Source: an uncultured Bacteroidales bacterium
GTDB taxonomy: Bacteria; Bacteroidota; Bacteroidia; Bacteroidales; Dysgonomonadaceae
Direction: 5' to 3'
DNA length: 48,569 nt
NCBI GenBank assembly: GCA_964293155.1
Contig: CAXYYA010000028.1
Span: 1 to 48,569 of the forward strand
Below, piece after piece: positions 7,640 to 46,523 of the stretch. Made by a program: the position numbers and the translations under genes. A model generated the notes under the pieces. That model ran no database searches. It had not been told where the DNA came from and worked only from the letters and a program-made list of their open reading frames with translations. The first letter of the stretch is position 1. Each line of letters begins with the position of its first letter.

Positions 7640-9310
7640 ATGACTATTCTTCCCGAAAAAATAGAAAATTATTCCGGCATCATCGCTTTTATGCTTAAGT
7701 ATCGTAACAGCCACGTTTTTAACACCGTTGTGGATAATGCCGCGGACTTAGACGATGACGAAAAAACCGAAAGCGATGATTCAGGAATAACTCCGCAGGA
7801 TTTTGCAAACGATCTTAAACAGATGGGCCCCGTGTATGTGAAGTTGGGACAACTCTTATCCACACGTCCCGATTTATTACCCGAAGAATATTTGGATGAA
7901 CTGGCAAATTTGCAGGACGATGTAGAACCCATTGGATATGGGAAGATTGAGCGGTTGATAGAAGAGGAATTGGGTGTAAGAATTTCCAAAGCTTTCAAGA
8001 CATTTGATCCGGCACCCTTAGCCAGCGCTTCCATCGGCCAGGTACACAGGGCGGAATTGCCATCGGGCAAAAAAGTGGCCGTTAAGGTGCAGCGTCCCGG
8101 TATCCGGAAACAGTTTACGGAAGAACTGGAAACCTTAAAAAACATGGTGGACATGGCCGTAAAATACACGAAAACAGCCGATAAATACGCGCTGGACGAT
8201 GTTCTGGATGAACTCAGCCACATGTTAATGAACGAGCTGGACTATAAAATGGAGGCTCAAAGTCTGGTTATTTTGGGACAAAATCTCAAAGAATACAAGC
8301 GTCTTATCGTTCCTCAGCCGGTGATGGATTATTGCACTCCAAAAATCTTAACGATGGATTATGTGGAAGGTAAGAAAGTTACAAAAGTATCGCCATTTAC
8401 CAAAACGGAAGTGGATTTCACTCCATTGATCGATGAGTTAGTTAAGTCCTATCTTCAACAAGTGGTTATTGACGGTTTTGCACACGCCGATCCGCATCCG
8501 GGTAATGTACATTTTACTCCTGACAATAAAATAGCGCTGATAGATTTGGGCATGGTAGCCAAATTTAGCAATACGTTGAAAGATCAAATGTTGCGTTTGC
8601 TCCTTGCCATGAGTGAAATGTCGGGCGATAAGATCGTGGATATTTTACTGGGAATGAGCACGTATGACGAGACTGCAATGATAAAAGATTTCAGGAAAGA
8701 TGTTAACAGATTAGTTCTGGATAATCAAATCAGTATCGCTAAAGATTTAAAAACAGGCCGACTGATTATTCAAATGAATCGGATGGCTGCCGAGCGAAAC
8801 ATAAAAATAGCCGTAGAACTAAATCTGCTCGGCAAAATATTGTTGAATATTGATCAGATTATTGCAACATTAACTCCCGATTATGATTTTCAGAAAGCTA
8901 TAAACGAAAATGCCGAACGGTTGATGACGCAGAAAATGACGCAGGAATTGAAACCTGAAAACATGTTTAAAATGCTGTTGGAAACCAAAAAATTGGGCGA
9001 AAATTTACCGGAACGTTTAAACAAAATTTCTCAACGTTTAGCGGACAACGAGTTTGAAATTAAAGTGAATGCGATTGACGAAAAACGTTTTACCGATGGT
9101 TTTCAGAAAGTGGCTAACCGAATTACTGTGGGGTTAATAATTGCGGCACTTATTCTTGCCGCTTCTATGCTCATGCGTATGCCCACAAGTTTTACCATTC
9201 TCGGATATCCCGGGTTACCCCTTATTTTCTTTTTAATTGCATCCGGAGCAGGGATTATGTTGGTTTATAATATCATATCGAAAGACGAATATTTCCGAAA
9301 AAGAAAATAG
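7640..9310 (+). CDS. ABC1/AarF/UbiB-family atypical protein kinase with a C-terminal membrane anchor
   Basis: 556 aa. The ABC1 kinase-like core (GQVHRAEL, VAVKVQRPG, HADPHPGNV, IDLGMVA) is followed by two C-terminal TM helices. Confidence 0.85.
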   Translation: MTILPEKIENYSGIIAFMLKYRNSHVFNTVVDNAADLDDDEKTESDDSGITPQDFANDLKQMGPVYVKLGQLLSTRPDLLPEEYLDELANLQDDVEPIGYGKIERLIEEELGVRISKAFKTFDPAPLASASIGQVHRAELPSGKKVAVKVQRPGIRKQFTEELETLKNMVDMAVKYTKTADKYALDDVLDELSHMLMNELDYKMEAQSLVILGQNLKEYKRLIVPQPVMDYCTPKILTMDYVEGKKVTKVSPFTKTEVDFTPLIDELVKSYLQQVVIDGFAHADPHPGNVHFTPDNKIALIDLGMVAKFSNTLKDQMLRLLLAMSEMSGDKIVDILLGMSTYDETAMIKDFRKDVNRLVLDNQISIAKDLKTGRLIIQMNRMAAERNIKIAVELNLLGKILLNIDQIIATLTPDYDFQKAINENAERLMTQKMTQELKPENMFKMLLETKKLGENLPERLNKISQRLADNEFEIKVNAIDEKRFTDGFQKVANRITVGLIIAALILAASMLMRMPTSFTILGYPGLPLIFFLIASGAGIMLVYNIISKDEYFRKRK

Positions 9311-9490
9311 CGGGAACATCATTTTAAAATTAACGTGAGTTCAATACAAGAAAAGGCTCTTAATTGATTTATAATAAGGTAATAAGGTCTTTGTTCTATT
9401 TTAATTTAACTCTACTAAGGTTGCTTTTAAAAAATAAGGTTTCCAATACGCTTTGAACCCTGCCTACCGCAGGCAAGCTTATTTACAAAT

Positions 9491-9839
9491 ATGATTATCC
9501 GCATAATGTCCTACATCAATTGCCACGTCCCTTTACAGGCTGTGTAAAAAACATCGCAACAGTATCAATTTGTCATTCCGACGATAGGAGGAATCTTATT
9601 TGTCATAAATTATAGACTCTTCACTCCGCAAAGCTGCGTTCAGAGTGACAAAAAGACACCTAATTTTCATTTTTACACAGCCTCTTTAGGGCGTGGTTTT
9701 TGAGATACAGAGCAGATAGGCTTTAGCCGAAATTTATACTATTATTGGGCTGAAGCCCGTAATTCTTAGACATTATTATCCCACGACTTAAAAATCGTGG
9801 CAATAGATAAAGCCGTTAGGACACTTTGCGGATAATCAT
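9491..9839. mobile_element. MITE-like element of the outer family (TIR ATGATTATCCGC / GCGGATAATCAT) carrying a nested 148-bp insertion
   Basis: Terminal inverted repeats and subterminal hairpins (CCACGTCCC...GGGCGTGG, CCACGACTTAAAAATCGTGG). With the 9536-9683 insertion removed, it is near-identical in reverse complement to 46226-46420. Confidence 0.7.
9536..9683. mobile_element. Nested 148-bp MITE-like element of the inner family (TIR CAGGCTGTGTAAAAA...TTTTTACACAGCCT) with a 5-bp CTTTA target-site duplication
   Basis: Flanked by CTTTA at 9531-9535 and 9684-9688. The uninterrupted homologous site at 46226-46420 reads CCTTTAGGGCG. A second copy lies at 23143-23291. Confidence 0.65.
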
Positions 9840-9984
9840 TTTTACGAATAATATAACCTTAATAGGAATCAACGCAAGCAAAGTTTCAGCCTTATTAGCT
9901 TATTTACTGATTCTTATGAAATGAGTTGTGTCAAACTCACGTTAATTATTTCTTTCGCATTTTACACGGATTAGAACCGATAAT

Positions 9985-11580
9985 TTAGCTACTGCACACC
10001 TGCAAAGCGGCCGGAACAATATCAATGGTTACGGGAGTTGTGCCGCTGATCTCACCGTCAATTACCAGTTTCTGCGTCGGGTGTGTATCTAACTCCACGT
10101 GTTTCCCCTGAAAATGCTTCACGAATTCGCTACCTTCGGTAGGTTTGTCTTTGAGCAACTGCACCAATGTTTCGGCGGCATTTGCTTCGTTTTCCACGTT
10201 CACGATTACCGTCACGTCCAGCAGCCCGTCGTCCGGTAACGGTTCAGAACCTCCCTGTGCAAAAATGGATGTTTTAGGTGCAGTGTTTGCGATTGTTACG
10301 CTTCCGGTTTGAAACGTGTAGGTTTGATCATCAACTTTTAACGTTGCTTCAAAAATATCTTCTTTTTTAATGTGTTTTATTCCTCCGAGAATGTATCCGA
10401 AAGCGCCCCATTCGTCTTTTAAGCCGTCTTCGGCTTCTTCGGTCATTCCGCGCTCCAAACCTGCGCCTGCAAGCAAAACCATGTAAGAGTCGTTTATTTT
10501 CGCTATATCAATTTTGCGCGTTTTTCCCGAAGTGATCACGGCGCACGCCGTTTCAATGGGTTTCAACCGGATGCCATCGCCGTACAACATGGAAGCCAGG
10601 GCGTTGCTCGTCCCGAACGGAATTATTCCCATTACTGCGTCGGTATTTACCAAGGCTTGAGCCACCTGTGTTACGGTACCGTCGCCTCCGGCGGCAACCA
10701 CAAATTGCTTCCCTTCATTCACCAATTGTTGGGCAATGTCTTTAGCCTGATTTTGCTCTGTAGCTTCATGGAACGTGAGTTCGAAAAAGCTTTTCAACAG
10801 TTCGTTGACTTTATCCAGTTTTTCTTCTTTGGCTGTTCCTGCTGCTGCATTATAGATGATATGCAGTTCATCGGATTTCTTTTCCATGGATATCCCGAAG
10901 CTGTTCAGACTGGCGAATTGTCGTGTATTCGGCTTAACGTTCGGCCTGACTTTCCGGACTTCGTCAATCAAATCCTGATACGAACGCGACGGGTCCAGAA
11001 ATTTGAGATACGCCAAAAGTACGGTCACCGACCGACCTTGTCCCAATGCGCAGTGGATCAAAACTTCTTTTCCGTCTTTTCGTTGCTGATCAATCCATCT
11101 GACAGCCATTTCCAATTGGTTTTTCCGGGGACTATTGTGATCCATTACCGGGATGTTCAGATATTCTACATCACGTCCTAAAAATTGTGTTTCAATGGCA
11201 TCGAATTCAGCCGTAACGTCCAGTATGGCATTGATAGGACTCTCTTTGAGCGATTTCAGATCGGTGAACACCAACCGTCTGCTCAACCATAATCCGTCAC
11301 GGATTTCCTGCAATGGTGGCACATTGTCTCTTGATCGGGCGATCAGATTAAAAATGGTGGCGCCCAGCAAAACCGGAAATATGGCAATTTTTATGTAAAA
11401 CGGTAGTCGCCCGCCCTTGCTTTTAAAAAGCATTTCGCCGAAGTCGGCGAAATAAGCGATCGCGTAATAAAGCGATGAGAGCGATATCCAGATTAAAATG
11501 ATCTGTAGGATAAGAGGAGTGAAAAAACTAAGTACGGCAACAAGTACCGAAAAAATCAGGTAGATGTATCCTCTGTTCAT
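9985..11580 (-). CDS. Membrane-anchored fusion protein: dual-specificity/tyrosine phosphatase domain plus diacylglycerol-kinase-family (YegS-like) lipid kinase domain
   Basis: 531 aa with N-terminal TM helices. The CX5R phosphatase motif is VLIHCALGQGRSVTV. The DAGK_cat glycine motif is FVVAAGGDGTVTQV and a YegS-like C-domain follows. Confidence 0.75.
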   Translation of the reverse strand: MNRGYIYLIFSVLVAVLSFFTPLILQIILIWISLSSLYYAIAYFADFGEMLFKSKGGRLPFYIKIAIFPVLLGATIFNLIARSRDNVPPLQEIRDGLWLSRRLVFTDLKSLKESPINAILDVTAEFDAIETQFLGRDVEYLNIPVMDHNSPRKNQLEMAVRWIDQQRKDGKEVLIHCALGQGRSVTVLLAYLKFLDPSRSYQDLIDEVRKVRPNVKPNTRQFASLNSFGISMEKKSDELHIIYNAAAGTAKEEKLDKVNELLKSFFELTFHEATEQNQAKDIAQQLVNEGKQFVVAAGGDGTVTQVAQALVNTDAVMGIIPFGTSNALASMLYGDGIRLKPIETACAVITSGKTRKIDIAKINDSYMVLLAGAGLERGMTEEAEDGLKDEWGAFGYILGGIKHIKKEDIFEATLKVDDQTYTFQTGSVTIANTAPKTSIFAQGGSEPLPDDGLLDVTVIVNVENEANAAETLVQLLKDKPTEGSEFVKHFQGKHVELDTHPTQKLVIDGEISGTTPVTIDIVPAALQVCSS

Positions 11581-17703: not shown

Positions 17704-17744
17704 AGGGAAAAGGTCTGTACAACATTTGTTATAAAATTATTTTT

Positions 17745-17960
17745 ATGATTATCCGCAAAGTGTCCTAATATCAATTGCCACGGCTTTCAAGCCGTGGAAG
17801 GTATGAATTTAATTAAATTGGCTTTAGCCGAAATTTATGTAAACTTCCCGATTGCGGAATAAGTTGGGCTAAAGCCCATCTCATAGATACATCTAATTAT
17901 CCACGCCATAAATGGCGTGGCAATTGACACGGTTAATTAGGAAGGTTTGCGGATAATCAT
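17745..17960. mobile_element. MITE-like element, outer family, divergent variant (216 bp)
   Basis: Termini are ATGATTATCCGCAAAGTGTCCTAA...GCGGATAATCAT. The subterminal hairpins are CCACGGCTTTCAAGCCGTGG and CCACGCCATAAATGGCGTGG. The central GGCTTTAGCC/GGGCTAAAGCCC palindromes are shared with the other copies. Confidence 0.65.
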
Positions 17961-18455
17961 TATTATTTTAAACGCTAAGACGCCAAGCCGCTACGTTATT
18001 TTCTCATTTAAAAGAAAGCCTGTCTCTCAGATTATTAGTGAGGTGAAAAATAACTCTTTGCGCCTTCCCGTCTTTGCGCCTTTGCGTACATAAAACGCTT
18101 TTATATGCTGATGTGCGTTATTTTTTGATGAAATGTTGTTAGCGATGTAGTCCCTATAATTATCGGATCACTTCAAACAATGATAAATTGAAAAGATTAT
18201 CATGATTTTGATACAACTTCTTCAATTAACCATAAACTTAGAAACTGTTTTGAATTTTTTCTGACGATGTTTTTTATTCATTTTTTGATGGATTTGGATT
18301 CCTGCCTGCGGCAGGCGGGTTCGTTACGAATCAAATAGCGGGCTATTTGGAAGAAAGGAAAATTCAAAGACGCAAAAAAGGGCAAAAAACAGTCTGAAAG
18401 AATCAGAAAAATAGTTAAAAAACAAGATTCGTAAAATTCAAAACAGTTTCTTACA

Positions 18456-19578: not shown

Positions 19579-20090
19579 TACTGATTCTGTCCGTAATAAA
19601 CGTCCTTTTCTGTTTGCGGGATGAGGGTGGGAGAGTACTCAACCGGAGAAAGAACGTAACTGTCGCCGAAGATAACGCGTTCGTTCTCTCTGAACGTCAG
19701 TGTTGTGTCGTCCACCATCACAAACGCGCCGGAGCCTTCCAGCAGTTTATTGTTCTTCAACAGAAAGTATTTGTCAATGTTGGAAACAAATCCTTTGGAC
19801 ATGAACCGGTAAACGCCTTTCAGCGTATCGCCCGAAATAGTGCCTTTGTATTCGCCCTGCGAGTTTTCGGCGTTGCGTAGCTTATAGAACAAAAAGCCCT
19901 TAAAATTATCGCCGGTGCGTTCCAGTTCCAGTTTAACGGTGTCTCGTTTTATTGAACCTACGTAAGACAGATACTCCGTTTTCGGAGTTGTAAGCGCCGT
20001 GGAATCAACCGTTTGGGATGTTTCGCCTCCTTTTTTAGAGGTACACGAAACTGCCATCACAAGCGCAAGTGCGAAAAATAATTGTTTCAT
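19578..20090 (-). CDS. Lipoprotein of unknown function (tandem paralog 1)
   Basis: 170 aa with a lipoprotein signal (VSCTSK). Shares GDTLKGV..FMS.G..SN.DKYFL.K...LLEG with its neighbour. Confidence 0.6.
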   Translation of the reverse strand: MKQLFFALALVMAVSCTSKKGGETSQTVDSTALTTPKTEYLSYVGSIKRDTVKLELERTGDNFKGFLFYKLRNAENSQGEYKGTISGDTLKGVYRFMSKGFVSNIDKYFLLKNNKLLEGSGAFVMVDDTTLTFRENERVIFGDSYVLSPVEYSPTLIPQTEKDVYYGQNQ

Positions 20091-20134
20091 AAGATAAGGA
20101 AATGAAGTGGGTATAAAAAATGAGCTAAAGTTGG

Positions 20135-20659
20135 TTATTTGTTTGTTTTCAGCTTATAGTAGAACTCCCTGTTTTGGCGGGAAATAAATTCATCCGCGCA
20201 AGTTGCCGGTTGGAGGATATAACTTTCGCCGAACTTCACCCGAGCCGTATCGGTAAAAACCAGCGAAATGGAATCTTTTTCGGTGAGCGGGCCGATTCCT
20301 TCCAACAAGTTTCCGTCTTTCATCAGAAAGTATTTATCCACGTTGGATATCATTCCTTCCGACATAAAATTGAATACACCTTTCAGCGTATCGCCCGAAA
20401 CCTTGCCGTTGTATTCTCCGATGGAACTATCGCTCTCATAACGGTCGTAAAACAGAAATCCGTTGAAATCACTATCGGTGCGTTTCAGTTCCAGTCTCAC
20501 GGAATCCCGGTTTGCCGTTCCTAAAAAACAAAGTTTTTCCGTTGCCGGAACAAGTGTTGCCACCGAGTCGGTTTGAGCTGCGCTATTCCCGCTTTTGTTG
20601 TTGGTGCATGCCATCGCAAGCAATGCGATGCTTACCAGCGGCACAAAAAAATATTTCAT
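20135..20659 (-). CDS. Lipoprotein of unknown function (tandem paralog 2)
   Basis: 174 aa with a lipoprotein signal (LAMACTNNK). It aligns along its full length with the 19578-20090 product. Confidence 0.6.
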   Translation of the reverse strand: MKYFFVPLVSIALLAMACTNNKSGNSAAQTDSVATLVPATEKLCFLGTANRDSVRLELKRTDSDFNGFLFYDRYESDSSIGEYNGKVSGDTLKGVFNFMSEGMISNVDKYFLMKDGNLLEGIGPLTEKDSISLVFTDTARVKFGESYILQPATCADEFISRQNREFYYKLKTNK

Positions 20660-22987: not shown

Positions 22988-23142
22988 CGTAATTTATCCT
23001 ATATTTTTATTGGGCTACAAAGATAGTGAAAATGCTTTATTTGGCAAAGACGTAAAGTTTATCCGCAATGTTTCGAGGCTGAGAATTTTCAGTAGTCATG
23101 GCTAAAGCCGGTGTTCACGTTTGCTGGGTTCTCCGCTTTAAA

Positions 23143-23291
23143 CAGGCTGTGTAAGAAACATCGCAACAGTATCATTTTGTCATTCCGACGATAGGAGGAA
23201 TCTTTATTTGTCATAAATTATAAACTCTTCACTCCGCAAAGCTGCGTTCAGAGTGACAAAAAGACACCTAATTTTCATTTTTACACAGCCT
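23143..23291. mobile_element. Second copy of the inner-family MITE, 149 bp and about 97 percent identical to 9536-9683
   Basis: Same TIRs and internal sequence. It is flanked by TTAAA/CTAAA. An isolated outer-family terminus, ATTGCGGATAATCA, lies at 23316-23329. Confidence 0.6.
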
Positions 23292-23850
23292 CTAAAAGCA
23301 GGGTTATTAAGACGTATTGCGGATAATCAAAAAAATGACTATTTTTGTGAACGGGAAAAACATTTGTAAATGCCCATTAATTTGGTTGATTATTAAATCG
23401 CATAAATGAAGATGTTGGCAACGATTTGTAAATGTAAACTACAAAAATTTGGTAAATGGACAAGATTTGGTTAATAACAATAGCAACTGCAATTTTTTTG
23501 ATCATAAATTTTCTTTTTTATAAAACGCTCAACGTGTATTACAAAGAGGAATTTGGCAAAAAGACGTGAAAATTAGGAGGAGGGAGAATATACTTTTGGC
23601 AGGCATCAATAATTGTCAGCACAATAGGTGCGTTGATAGCAATTTATTTTTTAAAATAGTAAACGTTCATCACACCCTTCCCGCTTACGCGGATTTCTCG
23701 TCATAACGAGCGCACAGGTTCGAGCGGTAATCGGTGTGTGCCGCAGGCAAGAGTTTACTTCGTAACACACGCTTTGCAAAAGCGCGCGAGCACAAGCGGG
23801 ACACGAAGTTTGTAACTTCGTGAACGAAGGCACAGCCATCGTCTCCCAAT

Positions 23851-34719: not shown

Positions 34720-35328
34720 TTACGGTTGTACGATATCGGAGAACTGTGACAAATTTAATACTTTTGGTTGATAATCAATGCCTCTGCGCGATAAATTTCG
34801 TACAAACGCCCGCAAATGGTTCTCCGAAGCGCGCAAGAGGTTGGAATAAATCCGTTGGATATCGGGATTGTCGGTTTTCTGCAAGTGCGATTGCAGGTCT
34901 TCGATATCCTGTTCTTCGATCAACGCTCCGGCTTGCAGCGCCTCGATGAGCGTTGTGCCTTTGGTGAGCTCGGTGTACATTTTCTGTAACTCACGATTGG
35001 TAAACACGCCTTCCGCTTTCGCGAGGTCTTTTAACCCATACGTATCCACAAGCCACATCATGGCGTTCTGGTGCACCGTTTCGCTACGCGAAATATTTCG
35101 GAAGATAGGGATGCTATACTGCCGGGCGTAAAACGTATAAACGTCGTGGGCAAGTTTTTCTTCTTCGCGCATGTACTCAATGCTTTGGATGTCGGCCTTC
35201 GTCAGATTTTGCGTTGAAGCCGGTATTCCCATCGTCTTATTCTGTGTGGTTTTAGCCCCATCGGCAGCTTGGGGCAACAAAAGTATTGCCCCTGCCGCGA
35301 TCAGAATGAATAAATATTTTGTTTTCAT
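34720..35328 (-). CDS. Exported DUF2202-like (ferritin-like superfamily) protein, paralog 1
   Basis: 202 aa with a signal peptide. YMREEEKLAHDVY...SETVHQNAM...LRASENHLRAF is a ferritin-like four-helix pattern of E/H ligands. Confidence 0.6.
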   Translation of the reverse strand: MKTKYLFILIAAGAILLLPQAADGAKTTQNKTMGIPASTQNLTKADIQSIEYMREEEKLAHDVYTFYARQYSIPIFRNISRSETVHQNAMMWLVDTYGLKDLAKAEGVFTNRELQKMYTELTKGTTLIEALQAGALIEEQDIEDLQSHLQKTDNPDIQRIYSNLLRASENHLRAFVRNLSRRGIDYQPKVLNLSQFSDIVQP

Positions 35329-35332
35329 TTTT

Positions 35333-36025
35333 TTATGTGTTTATGATAGCGTTGAAATCATCGTTGCTCAATAATTGAGGTTGATATGCAATACCGTTGA
35401 ATTTGAGATTTGCGACAAAGGCTTTCAAATGAAACTGTGAAGCACGGAGTAGATTACCGTAAATTCTTTTGATAAACGGGTTTTCTGTTTCGGCTATTTC
35501 TCTTTGAAGATCAATAATATCGTGTTCTTCGATAAAAGCGCCGGCTTTGTAAGCATCTACAACTGTAAGGGCTTCGGTTGTAAGCTTTGTGTATAAATTT
35601 TGCAATTCTTCGATGTTAAATACCCCCGGTACCGTTTCGGCGGGAGTCTCAATTTTGTAGAGATTAATAAGCCAGGCGATAGCTTTTCCGTGTGCTATCT
35701 CGCTTTTGGAGATGTTGCTGAACACGGGTCTGGCGAATTTTTCGTTAAAATACACATACACATTATTGGCTAATTTTTCTTCTTCGCGCATGTACAGGAT
35801 GCTGTTTATTTCACTTTCGGTGAGTGGCGCGAGTTGCGTATTTGTCAACAAACAAAGCGAATCGGTGGTTGCAGCCAGTGTTGCATCAAGTCGCGTAGTT
35901 GAAACTGCGTTTATCAATGCGGCTTGTTCGGCATTTTCTTCCGGTGAATTTACGCTGTTCGCTTCACAACCGAAAAGCAAAATTGCAAGAAATGCCACGA
36001 CGGAAATTTTTTGATAAGTTTTCAT
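35333..36025 (-). CDS. Exported DUF2202-like (ferritin-like) lipoprotein, paralog 2
   Basis: 230 aa with a lipoprotein signal (LLFGCE). YMREEEKLANNVY...SEIAHGKAI...LRASQFHLKAF parallels the neighbour. It lies 4 bp upstream of paralog 1. Confidence 0.6.
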   Translation of the reverse strand: MKTYQKISVVAFLAILLFGCEANSVNSPEENAEQAALINAVSTTRLDATLAATTDSLCLLTNTQLAPLTESEINSILYMREEEKLANNVYVYFNEKFARPVFSNISKSEIAHGKAIAWLINLYKIETPAETVPGVFNIEELQNLYTKLTTEALTVVDAYKAGAFIEEHDIIDLQREIAETENPFIKRIYGNLLRASQFHLKAFVANLKFNGIAYQPQLLSNDDFNAIINT

Positions 36026-36079: not shown

Positions 36080-36109
36080 AAAAATGGGGAGCGAATCCCC
36101 ATTTTTTTG
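36080..36109. terminator. Intrinsic terminator after the EF-hand-repeat gene
   Basis: AAAAAATGGGGA-GCGAA-TCCCCATTTTTTT. Confidence 0.6.
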
Positions 36110-36123
36110 TGGTTGGTGCGTGG

Positions 36124-36687
36124 TTATTTTGTGGTTTCCCTACGGTCGCAAATACCGTTTTTATTGGCGTCCACAAAATTTACCGCACTGCCTTTTCCAT
36201 TCCGAAGGCCGGTGCCTTTCCCTGTACCGCGTCCCTGGCGCGGTGTTCCGTTTTCGAAGTTGTCACAAATGCCGTCTTTGTCGGCATCTACGAAATTTGC
36301 TCCACCACCTCTGCCGTTACGCAGTCCGTTGCCATAGCCTTGTCCGCGTCCTCCACGGGGAGTTCCGTTTTCGAAATTGTCGCACACGCCATCTTTATCG
36401 GCATCCACAAAGAAGCGTCCTTGTCCTCTGCCGTTGCGTAATCCCTGGCCTTTGCCTTGTCCGCGGCCGCTACCGTCGAGCAGTCGTTGTTTGCCGTTGG
36501 CATTCGGATTTCCGGGTGTTCCGTTCTCGAAATTATCGCAAACGCCGTTGTTGTTTTTGTCCACAAATGCAGGTCCGGTTTGAGCGGTTTTCGCCGTTTC
36601 CTTTGCTGCCTGATTTTGATTTTGGGCGGTTGCTAATCCTATGGTGGCAACCAGCGCCATTGCAGTGATAAATACTTTTGTTTTCAT
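36124..36687 (-). CDS. Secreted protein with four canonical EF-hand calcium-binding loops separated by Gly/Arg-rich linkers
   Basis: 187 aa with a signal peptide. There are four repeats FVD(A/K)(D/N)K(D/N)G(V/I)CDNFENGTP, and each matches the EF-loop D-x-D-x-D-G-x-x-D-x-x-E and contains one Cys. The linkers are GRGQGKGQGLRNGRGQG. Confidence 0.6.
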   Translation of the reverse strand: MKTKVFITAMALVATIGLATAQNQNQAAKETAKTAQTGPAFVDKNNNGVCDNFENGTPGNPNANGKQRLLDGSGRGQGKGQGLRNGRGQGRFFVDADKDGVCDNFENGTPRGGRGQGYGNGLRNGRGGGANFVDADKDGICDNFENGTPRQGRGTGKGTGLRNGKGSAVNFVDANKNGICDRRETTK

Positions 36688-46105: not shown

Positions 46106-46225
46106 GATCGCTTATGCGCAAATATATATGTTAAAAACGTCATTTGCAAGTAAATTAACAGATAATATTTTATGTTTTAGAGCAGGTTTTTTGGGAAAAA
46201 TGATAAGGTTAACCATCAATTTTTC

Positions 46226-46420
46226 ACATTATCCGCGAAGTGTTCTAACGGCTTTATCCATTGCCACGACTTTTAAGTCGTGGGATAATGATGTCTAAGA
46301 ATTACGGGCTTTAGCCCAATAATAGTATAAATTTCGGCTAAAGCCTATCTGCTCTGTATCTCAAAAACCACGCCCTAAAGGGACGTGGCAATTGATGTAG
46401 GACATTATACGGATAATCAT
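46226..46420. mobile_element. MITE-like element, outer family, intact copy (195 bp) lacking the nested insert
   Basis: It is the reverse complement of 9491-9839 minus the insert at 9536-9683. One terminus is degenerate (ACATTATCCGC). Confidence 0.7.
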
Positions 46421-46523
46421 ATTAAATTATTATTCATGTCATTTCCTCTTTATGCCCAATTTTGGGTGGGGACGTGACAAGATGAAACTGTTCTTGCTCT
46501 TTTGATACTGCCTCTTTTATTGT

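Follow-up and report, generated by a model that had tools for sequence, protein, structure and literature searches.

IS1397 and ISKpn1, which insert in the loops of BIMEs, serve as a comparison for palindrome targeting by mobile elements. Insertion of ISPpu9 in REP has also been described (10.1101/2025.01.17.633520). Within the IS1182 family, palindrome targeting by some members has been noted, and IS1272 of staphylococci targets hairpins, often terminators, with little primary-sequence specificity (PMC4923244, PMC5678879). Direct repeats of 4 bp are published for ISPse1 (PMC3281130, Table 2) and for IS1182-derived MITEs of 160-169 bp in Methanosarcina, while an IS1595-derived MITE, a derivative of ISHwa6, has a direct repeat of 8 and an inverted repeat of 25; nested elements are routinely handled in IS and MITE annotation (PMC3852290).

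Here we describe a nest of such elements in a window (the whole stretch of DNA that was analysed) of 48,569 nucleotides from an uncultured Bacteroidales bacterium. As with IS1397/ISKpn1 and ISPpu9/ISPpu10, a hairpin-forming repeat is the landing site of another mobile element, but those are autonomous members of the IS3 and IS110 families, whereas here the guest is a MITE with IS1182-type ends and the host a MITE with IS1595-type ends. Both are additional members of known families, nesting and insertion into hairpin repeats are already known, and general knowledge of MITEs is unchanged by the locus. It is a clean natural record of transposition, in which filled site, uninterrupted copy and duplication are found together. 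The most useful addition is evidence, drawn from several phyla, that dyad centres are the insertion sites of this IS1182 lineage and that the four bases at the centre are duplicated, which probably accounts for the nest. Structure-guided targeting in this family thereby gains natural-sequence support from many phyla; its earlier documentation came mainly from IS1272, with deletion of the hairpin instead.

The filled site and its uninterrupted copy

The first-pass annotation had read positions 9491-9839 as a MITE nested inside another MITE, and as the reverse complement of 46226-46420 apart from one inserted block. Both statements were borne out: identity outside the insert is 96-98%, and the alignment contains a single 153-bp gap. 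The features involved are as follows.

9490-9840, plus strand: outer MITE copy A, 351 bp including the inner insert, with IS1595-family ends
9482-9489, strandless: left target duplication of outer copy A (TTTACAAA), matching 9841-9848 at 7 of 8 positions
9841-9848, strandless: right target duplication of outer copy A (TTTACGAA), matching the left one at 7 of 8 positions
9536-9684, plus strand: inner MITE copy 1, 149 bp, with IS1182-family ends; missing from copy B
9532-9535, strandless: left target duplication of inner copy 1 (TTTA), present once in copy B (46376-46379, complement)
9685-9688, strandless: right target duplication of inner copy 1 (TTTA), by the 4-bp rule
9523-9530, plus strand: 5' arm (CCACGTCC) of the outer hairpin that the inner element interrupts, pairing with 9689-9696
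9689-9701, plus strand: 3' arm (GGGCGTGG) of the split hairpin and a TTTTT run
46224-46421, minus strand: outer MITE copy B, without the insert, a paralogous 'empty site'
46363-46388, minus strand: intact target hairpin of copy B (CCACGTCC-CTTTA-GGGCGTGG, then TTTTT)

Repeat finding and alignment gave two complementary blocks, 9488-9535 against 46376-46423 (48 nt, 98%) and 9684-9836 against 46228-46380 (153 nt, 96%), which overlap in copy B only at 46376-46380, where the minus strand reads CTTTA. This pentamer occurs once in copy B, whose uninterrupted sequence is CCACGTCC-CTTTA-GGGCGTGG-TTTTT, and twice in copy A, so that the two copies differ by one 153-bp gap; in a pairwise alignment MAFFT set the gap 16 nt too far to the left, still as a single gap of 153 bp. 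The locus is a single clean insertion with both target duplications and an uninterrupted copy. With duplication and uninterrupted copy both in the window, and with autonomous families that have the same ends (below), the nesting stands, and the first reading, that one non-autonomous element transposed into another, is supported.

Several details of that reading had to be adjusted. The inner block had been given as 148 bp (9536-9683) and measures 149 bp (9536-9684); its own terminal inverted repeats are perfect over 14 bp (AGGCTGTGTAAAAA at 9537-9550, TTTTTACACAGCCT at 9670-9683). The 12-bp outer terminal repeats ATGATTATCCGC/GCGGATAATCAT are present, but the inverted repeat runs on imperfectly for ~25-35 nt and the element spans 9490-9840. 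The CTTTA direct repeat is likewise there, but only TTTA is target duplication, the C being the last base of the element. Copy B had been called the empty-site allele; an uninterrupted copy does lie in the window, but it is a paralogue at another locus, not an allele of the copy A site. Copy B has a degenerate right end and no recognisable target duplication, and it is identical in the NCBI MAG contig JAQVEB010000006.1. Finally, the outer element was said to have come first and the inner later. This order is shown only for the present locus, where the outer hairpin seen whole in copy B is interrupted by the insert. Outer copies A and B differ at 7 of 201 positions (~3.5%) and inner copies 1 and 2 at ~3 of 151 (~2%), values that, with so few sites, are not significantly different and do not establish a family-wide chronology.

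Further copies of both families are present elsewhere in the window.

17744-17961, plus strand: outer-family copy C, 218 bp, with the same ends, a different interior and two subterminal CCACG...CGTGG hairpins
23055-23331, plus strand: short degenerate outer-family element hosting inner copy 2, with ends TTATCCGCAAT...ATTGCGGATAATCA
23143-23292, plus strand: inner MITE copy 2, 150 bp, 97-99% identical to copy 1
23139-23142 and 23293-23296: target duplication of inner copy 2 (TAAA), by the 4-bp rule

Copy C has a 25-nt inverted repeat (88%) and a perfect 8-bp duplication, ATTATTTT, at 17736-17743 and 17962-17969, and the element at 23055-23331 has degenerate ends and no recognisable target duplication. 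As inner copy 2 lies inside this degenerate element, the outer family hosts both of the window's inner copies. The two families have the characters of MITEs. They are short (149-150 bp for the inner, 195-218 bp for the outer without insert) and carry no transposase gene, with no ORF of at least 80 aa in 9311-9984; the 14-bp perfect ends of the inner element are accompanied by TTTA/TTTA and TAAA/TAAA duplications, and the ~24-bp ends of the outer by duplications matching at 8/8 and 7/8 positions. Dispersed copies (two inner, four outer) occur together with uninterrupted sites, namely copy B and locus L120, which is described below.

Family identity of the two elements

At its two ends, outer copy A carries TATGATTATCCGC...GCGGATAATCATT, in agreement with the 24-bp terminal repeats seen on full-length elements of the IS1595 family. 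A scan of metagenomes with ATGATTATCCGCAWANNNTCCTA yielded at least 120 loci, and among the matches listed the paired ends fell into two size groups, one of 92-470 bp, with diverse MITE interiors, and one of 1076-1102 bp with at least 11 elements, whose ends agree with the outer ends at all of 24 nt. Of these large elements, the two that were scanned, in loci L151 and L171, each encode a 317-aa protein scoring 186-197 bits on NF033547 ('IS1595 family transposase', cut-off 75), and the L151 protein also matches PF12762. Homologues of the L151-type transposase were found by tblastn in the other large outer-type elements, at least 13 complete ones (60-81% identical) being present in the loci analysed. 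Offset analysis of the 77 paired ends listed gave a duplication of 8 bp and ends of the form W-A-TGATTATCC...GGATAATCA-T-W. The full-length copy in L151 is bounded by a perfect 8-bp duplication, TTATCTTT, and its 24-nt terminal repeat recurs without change at 17745-17768.

The nearest named relative of the outer-type transposase is ISBbi1 of Bacteroides (46% identity; ends CTGATTCTCCGC / CTGATTATCCGT). Like the outer element, ISBbi1 and other IS1595-family elements of Bacteroidota have ends of the TGATT(A/C)TCCG type, and the outer family shares with IS1595-family elements an 8-bp AT-rich duplication and an IS of ~1.1 kb with a single transposase of ~317 aa (NF033547, PF12762); the transposases with the exact outer ends are, however, only 46-50% identical to those of ISBbi1 and its Bacteroides relatives. 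Judging from its ends and the 8-bp duplication, the outer MITE is an IS1595-family derivative. Close to each end, outer-family copies also have a subterminal TCAATTGCCACG-stem-loop-CGTGG hairpin (17771-17798 / 17900-17927, 9516-9530 / 9787-9812, and 46363-46388), the stem interiors of which vary yet stay complementary (GTCC/GGGC, GCTT/AAGC, CCAT/ATGG, ACTT/AGTC); the full-length IS in L151 has no such subterminal hairpins.

For the inner element, one genome per species was scanned with AGGCTGTGTAA-N(100-130)-TTACACAGCCT, which returned at least 119 loci. The matches listed come from Oxalobacteraceae, other Beta-, Gamma- and Alphaproteobacteria, Bacteroidales, Nitrospirales, Gemmatimonadaceae, a cyanobacterium and others; nearly all of these copies carry AGGCTGTGTAAAAAC...GTTTTTACACAGCCT and measure 124-149 bp, and their interiors are lineage-specific, while the ends are conserved across many phyla. 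A blastn comparison of the window with the 119 genome loci listed, the source genome not among them, gave no match. In Massilia sp. CFBP 13721 (L008, 3719-5399), the same 15-16-nt ends, 1681 bp apart, enclose a 514-aa ORF whose product scores 457 bits on NCBIfam NF033551 ('IS1182 family transposase', cut-off 270) and also matches Pfam DUF772, DDE_Tnp_1 and DDE_Tnp_1_6. Transposase fragments adjoin solitary inner-type ends in four further loci (L017, L038, L103 and L118).

The named relatives nearest to the L008-type transposase are ISPa7 (73% amino acid identity) and ISPmo1 (70%). On plasmid NZ_CP026333.1, ISPa7 reads GGCC, then CAGACCGTGTAAAAAC...GTTTTTACACGGTCTG, then GGCC again. The inner ends match those of the full-length Massilia copy exactly, and the terminal repeat, CAGRCYGTGTAAAAAC, agrees with that of ISPa7 at 14 of 16 positions. 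The inner element shares its 4-bp duplication with the ISPa7/ISPmo1 group of the IS1182 family (to which ISPse1 and the ISMac2-derived MITEs of Methanosarcina may be added) and, like the ISPa7 group, inserts at the centre of a palindromic site; unlike that group, it is a non-coding derivative of 149 bp from an uncultured member of the Bacteroidota, with an interior unrelated to those of the proteobacterial copies. From the match of its ends, together with the duplication and the palindromic target, we class the inner MITE as a putative IS1182-family derivative.

Each set of ends thus has an exact counterpart on autonomous elements, the duplications follow rules of 4 bp and 8 bp, and the uninterrupted site is a hairpin. 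The first-pass annotation had called for a search for transposases with matching termini, and these were found outside the window, of IS1182 type in L008 and of IS1595 type in L151 and L171. With both transposases as queries, tblastn over the window returned nothing, and neither the window nor the short contigs of the same species encode an IS1182-family transposase. A candidate full-length inner-type element at L227 53-1882 was rejected as chance near-matches flanking ordinary genes. Scans of viral contigs with the outer terminal repeat and the inner core gave no matches, and a text search of the literature with the terminal 13-mers recovered only irrelevant primers.

Target sites and the origin of the nest

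We tested every duplication offset on the 121 inner-type copies listed, to which the two window copies add up to 123. An exact 4-bp direct repeat lies just outside S-AGGCTG...CAGCCT-S in 71 of the 121 (73 of 123 with the window copies; the termini of inner copy 1 are C-AGGCTG...CAGCCT-C), and 31 of these 73 repeats are non-palindromic, for example GACC/GACC and GGTC/GGTC. Extensions to 5 bp occurred at about the chance rate (18 and 24 of the 71 listed copies with a 4-bp repeat). From these 123 copies, and from inner copy 2, at which TAAA/TAAA matches and TTAAA/CTAAA does not, it follows that the duplication is of 4 bp rather than 5, and a 5-bp CTTTA duplication was rejected on both grounds. 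A 2-bp duplication around a 151-bp element fits the two window copies but is unsupported by the 123-copy analysis. Many Bacteroidales inner-type copies show no 4-bp duplication with the boundaries used and have a uniform CTTTT right flank, so that the element end is perhaps longer there; the right end may lie further out, or these copies may form a distinct sub-family. The copies with the CTTTT flank are those in L012, L031, L041, L067, L080, L082, L089, L092 and L107, and their interiors have in common a long imperfect hairpin, CGTCATTGCGA..GAAGCAATC-loop-GATTGCTTC..TCGCAATGACG.

The target hairpin in copy B folds as DNA at -8.8 kcal/mol (z = -4.3) with a stem of 8-9 bp. Because the CCACGTCC...GGGCGTGG hairpin was absent from the output of a simple terminator scan, a role as terminator, suggested by the modelled fold and the T-run, is put forward only tentatively. 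For inner copy 2, the alignment of L120, which is 99.4% identical across 4.7 kb, runs as far as 23142, where the left TAAA ends, and the contig passes from there straight into the right flank. The uninterrupted site there reads CTCCTCTT-TAAA-AAGCGGAG, an 8-bp stem with one mismatch whose loop is the duplication; the last ~100 nt of L120 are far more diverged than the rest of the contig, for which reason this 'empty site' is perhaps a paralogue rather than an allele. Two contigs of a sister strain, L121 and L122 (99.5-99.7% identical), have a different outer-like segment upstream of ffh, and in L121 a CCACGCCC-TAAAG loop is broken by an inner-family left end in the opposite orientation, with one junction seen where the contig ends. 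Inner copies are hence nested in hairpin loops of outer-family elements in 2 of 2 cases in the window and in a third, with one junction, in the sister strain. These are the only three inner-family insertions known in this species, and a preference for outer-family hairpins therefore rests on few events; target choice in this organism would be structure-guided.

In Oxalobacteraceae, MITEs and full-length IS alike occupy the GGCC/GGTC centre of GTCCGC-N4-GGCC-N4-GCGGAC, and uninterrupted palindromes of this type are plentiful in the same loci (five in 8 kb of L010, at positions 447, 2771, 3191, 4473 and 4780). In the proteobacterial palindromes the tetramers that flank the centre are as a rule unable to pair, so that the target there may be a particular sequence or a protein-bound site rather than an extruded hairpin. 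Highly repeated in Herbaspirillum and Massilia (L004, L010, L059, L083 and others), this REP-like palindrome is where IS1182-type MITEs and the L008 full-length IS preferentially insert.

The locus is very probably best explained as a stack of MITEs with IS1595- and IS1182-family ends, in which the inner one was placed by targeting of hairpin or palindrome centres. An outer element with IS1595-family ends, related to ISBbi1, would have inserted into AT-rich intergenic DNA with an 8-bp duplication, bringing with it G+C-rich stem-loops of the form CCACGnnn-loop-nnnCGTGG. An inner element with IS1182-family ends, related to ISPa7, would have been mobilised by a transposase encoded elsewhere, presumably supplied in trans, and joined at the loop of one of these stem-loops, duplicating four loop bases (TTTA). 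Since the IS1182 lineage selects dyad centres and the outer family offers them, the nesting is most likely not due to chance; that the insertion lies in a hairpin loop, its likely cause, had escaped the first-pass annotation.

Coincidence would mean that the inner MITE landed more or less at random in AT-rich intergenic DNA, much of which consists of outer elements. Four outer-family copies in 48.6 kb do make up a noticeable share of the intergenic DNA, just two inner copies are present in the window, and the duplicated tetramers, TTTA and TAAA, contain only A and T. We nevertheless regard chance as improbable, given that both insertions are centred in the loops of hairpins with 8-bp stems, that the third event in the sister strain struck the same type of loop, that the family and its autonomous IS lie at palindrome centres across phyla, and that hairpin targeting is known for IS1272 (PMC4923244, PMC5678879).

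It is hardly credible that the inner block is a structured RNA or terminator module, a long hairpin with a U-run, copied by recombination or gene conversion. Direct target duplications at 73 of the 123 copies listed argue against it, as do identical ends enclosing an IS with an IS1182-family transposase and the clean presence/absence difference with its duplicated tetramer, even though inner copy 1 folds into a long hairpin (z = -4.7), the ends are kept across many phyla around a variable interior, and CTTTTT follows many of the Bacteroidales copies. Rfam gave no match over the whole window at gathering thresholds, and a permissive scan of 9200-10100 returned only a chance-level MIR1861 (E = 0.11); a tRNA scan found none, and a structured-RNA identity was discarded for lack of a useful Rfam match. 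The least probable explanation of all is an IS1272-style 'stem-loop replacing' insertion, since IS1272, although of the same family and like the inner element in its hairpin targets (PMC4923244, PMC5678879), removes the stem-loop wholly or in part and produces no duplication, whereas in the present case neither hairpin arm is lost and four loop bases are duplicated, ISPa7 (GGCC/GGCC) and most of the family copies listed likewise duplicate, and the observed pattern is that of the loop-duplicating pathway c in Fig. 13 of PMC5678879.

Insertion at hairpin or palindrome centres, the reading that we prefer, might extend to the lineage as a whole. The near-invariant ends S-AGGCTGTGTAAAAAC occur, among the matches listed, in Bacteroidota, Alpha-, Beta- and Gammaproteobacteria, Nitrospirota, Gemmatimonadota and Cyanobacteria. 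The IS1182 lineage that bears them could be a 'parasite of repeats' that recognises dyad centres, duplicates exactly the four bases at the centre and for that reason colonises other repeat families by preference, such as REP-like palindromes and IS1595 MITEs, giving rise to multi-layer nests like the present one of three levels; we hold this broader proposition, in all its parts jointly, to be evenly balanced between true and false.

A third layer, strain variation and the surrounding window

Outside the outer element lies one further repeat.

9330-9945, strandless: third foldback repeat around outer copy A (the outermost layer), recognised by inverted ends and arm motifs

Its perfect inverted ends, TTAACGTGAGTT, are at 9330-9341 and 9934-9945, and its arms, 9330-9489 and 9849-9945, carry the mirrored motifs AATAAGGTAATAAGGT and CTACTAAGGTT; internal mirrored motifs rich in TAAGGT mark the family. 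As outer copy A sits inside this repeat, the locus is three elements deep. Uninterrupted homologues of the third family, 175-237 bp long with ends TTAACGTGAGTTCGATATAAGAAT, are found in L194 (144-318), L207 (227-456) and L157 (788-1024); neither an autonomous partner nor a clear target duplication was found for this family. The third-family ends read TTAACGTGAGTTCGATAT. In L157 and L207, the end of an IS1595-type MITE and that of the third family are no more than ~10 bp apart. A 291-bp element in L133 (10632-10922) combines IS1182-type ends with an interior built from the third family's foldback motifs, rich in TAAGGT; it is flanked by CCCC-TGAA on one side and TAAA-GGGG on the other, again a hairpin loop.

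Upstream of ffh, strains that are 99.4-99.7% identical display three arrangements: a filled site (window 23034-23340), an uninterrupted one (L120, 1-160), and a different outer-like segment with its own inner insertion (L121/L122, 1-256). The uninterrupted site in L120 and the arrangement in L121, in strains more than 99% identical, suggest recent activity of the inner family, and the region upstream of ffh indicates recent repeat-driven turnover. As the elements are polymorphic between such closely related strains, they are possible strain markers. Short-read contigs of the same species break at outer and inner elements, and short-read assemblies of this Bacteroidota species are accordingly fragmented by these repeats.

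The window is otherwise an ordinary stretch of Bacteroidota chromosome, with SusC/D-like genes, an ABC1 kinase, a DAG-kinase/phosphatase, TsaB, GH20, Ffh and an M3 peptidase, and all of its mobile elements are intergenic. The species is represented by the NCBI MAG GCA_028698105.1 and several metagenome assemblies; an exact look-up of the ABC1-kinase product returned no record. At 36145-36560, within overlapping ORFs (36084-36687), there are at least three tandem 117-bp units, 72-83% identical, which probably encode a repetitive protein. Diverged direct repeats (73-77%) relate the ORF at 34720-35328 to that at 35333-36025, and 19725-19856 to 20288-20419, suggesting tandem paralogous genes in both intervals (34720-36025 and 19725-20419).
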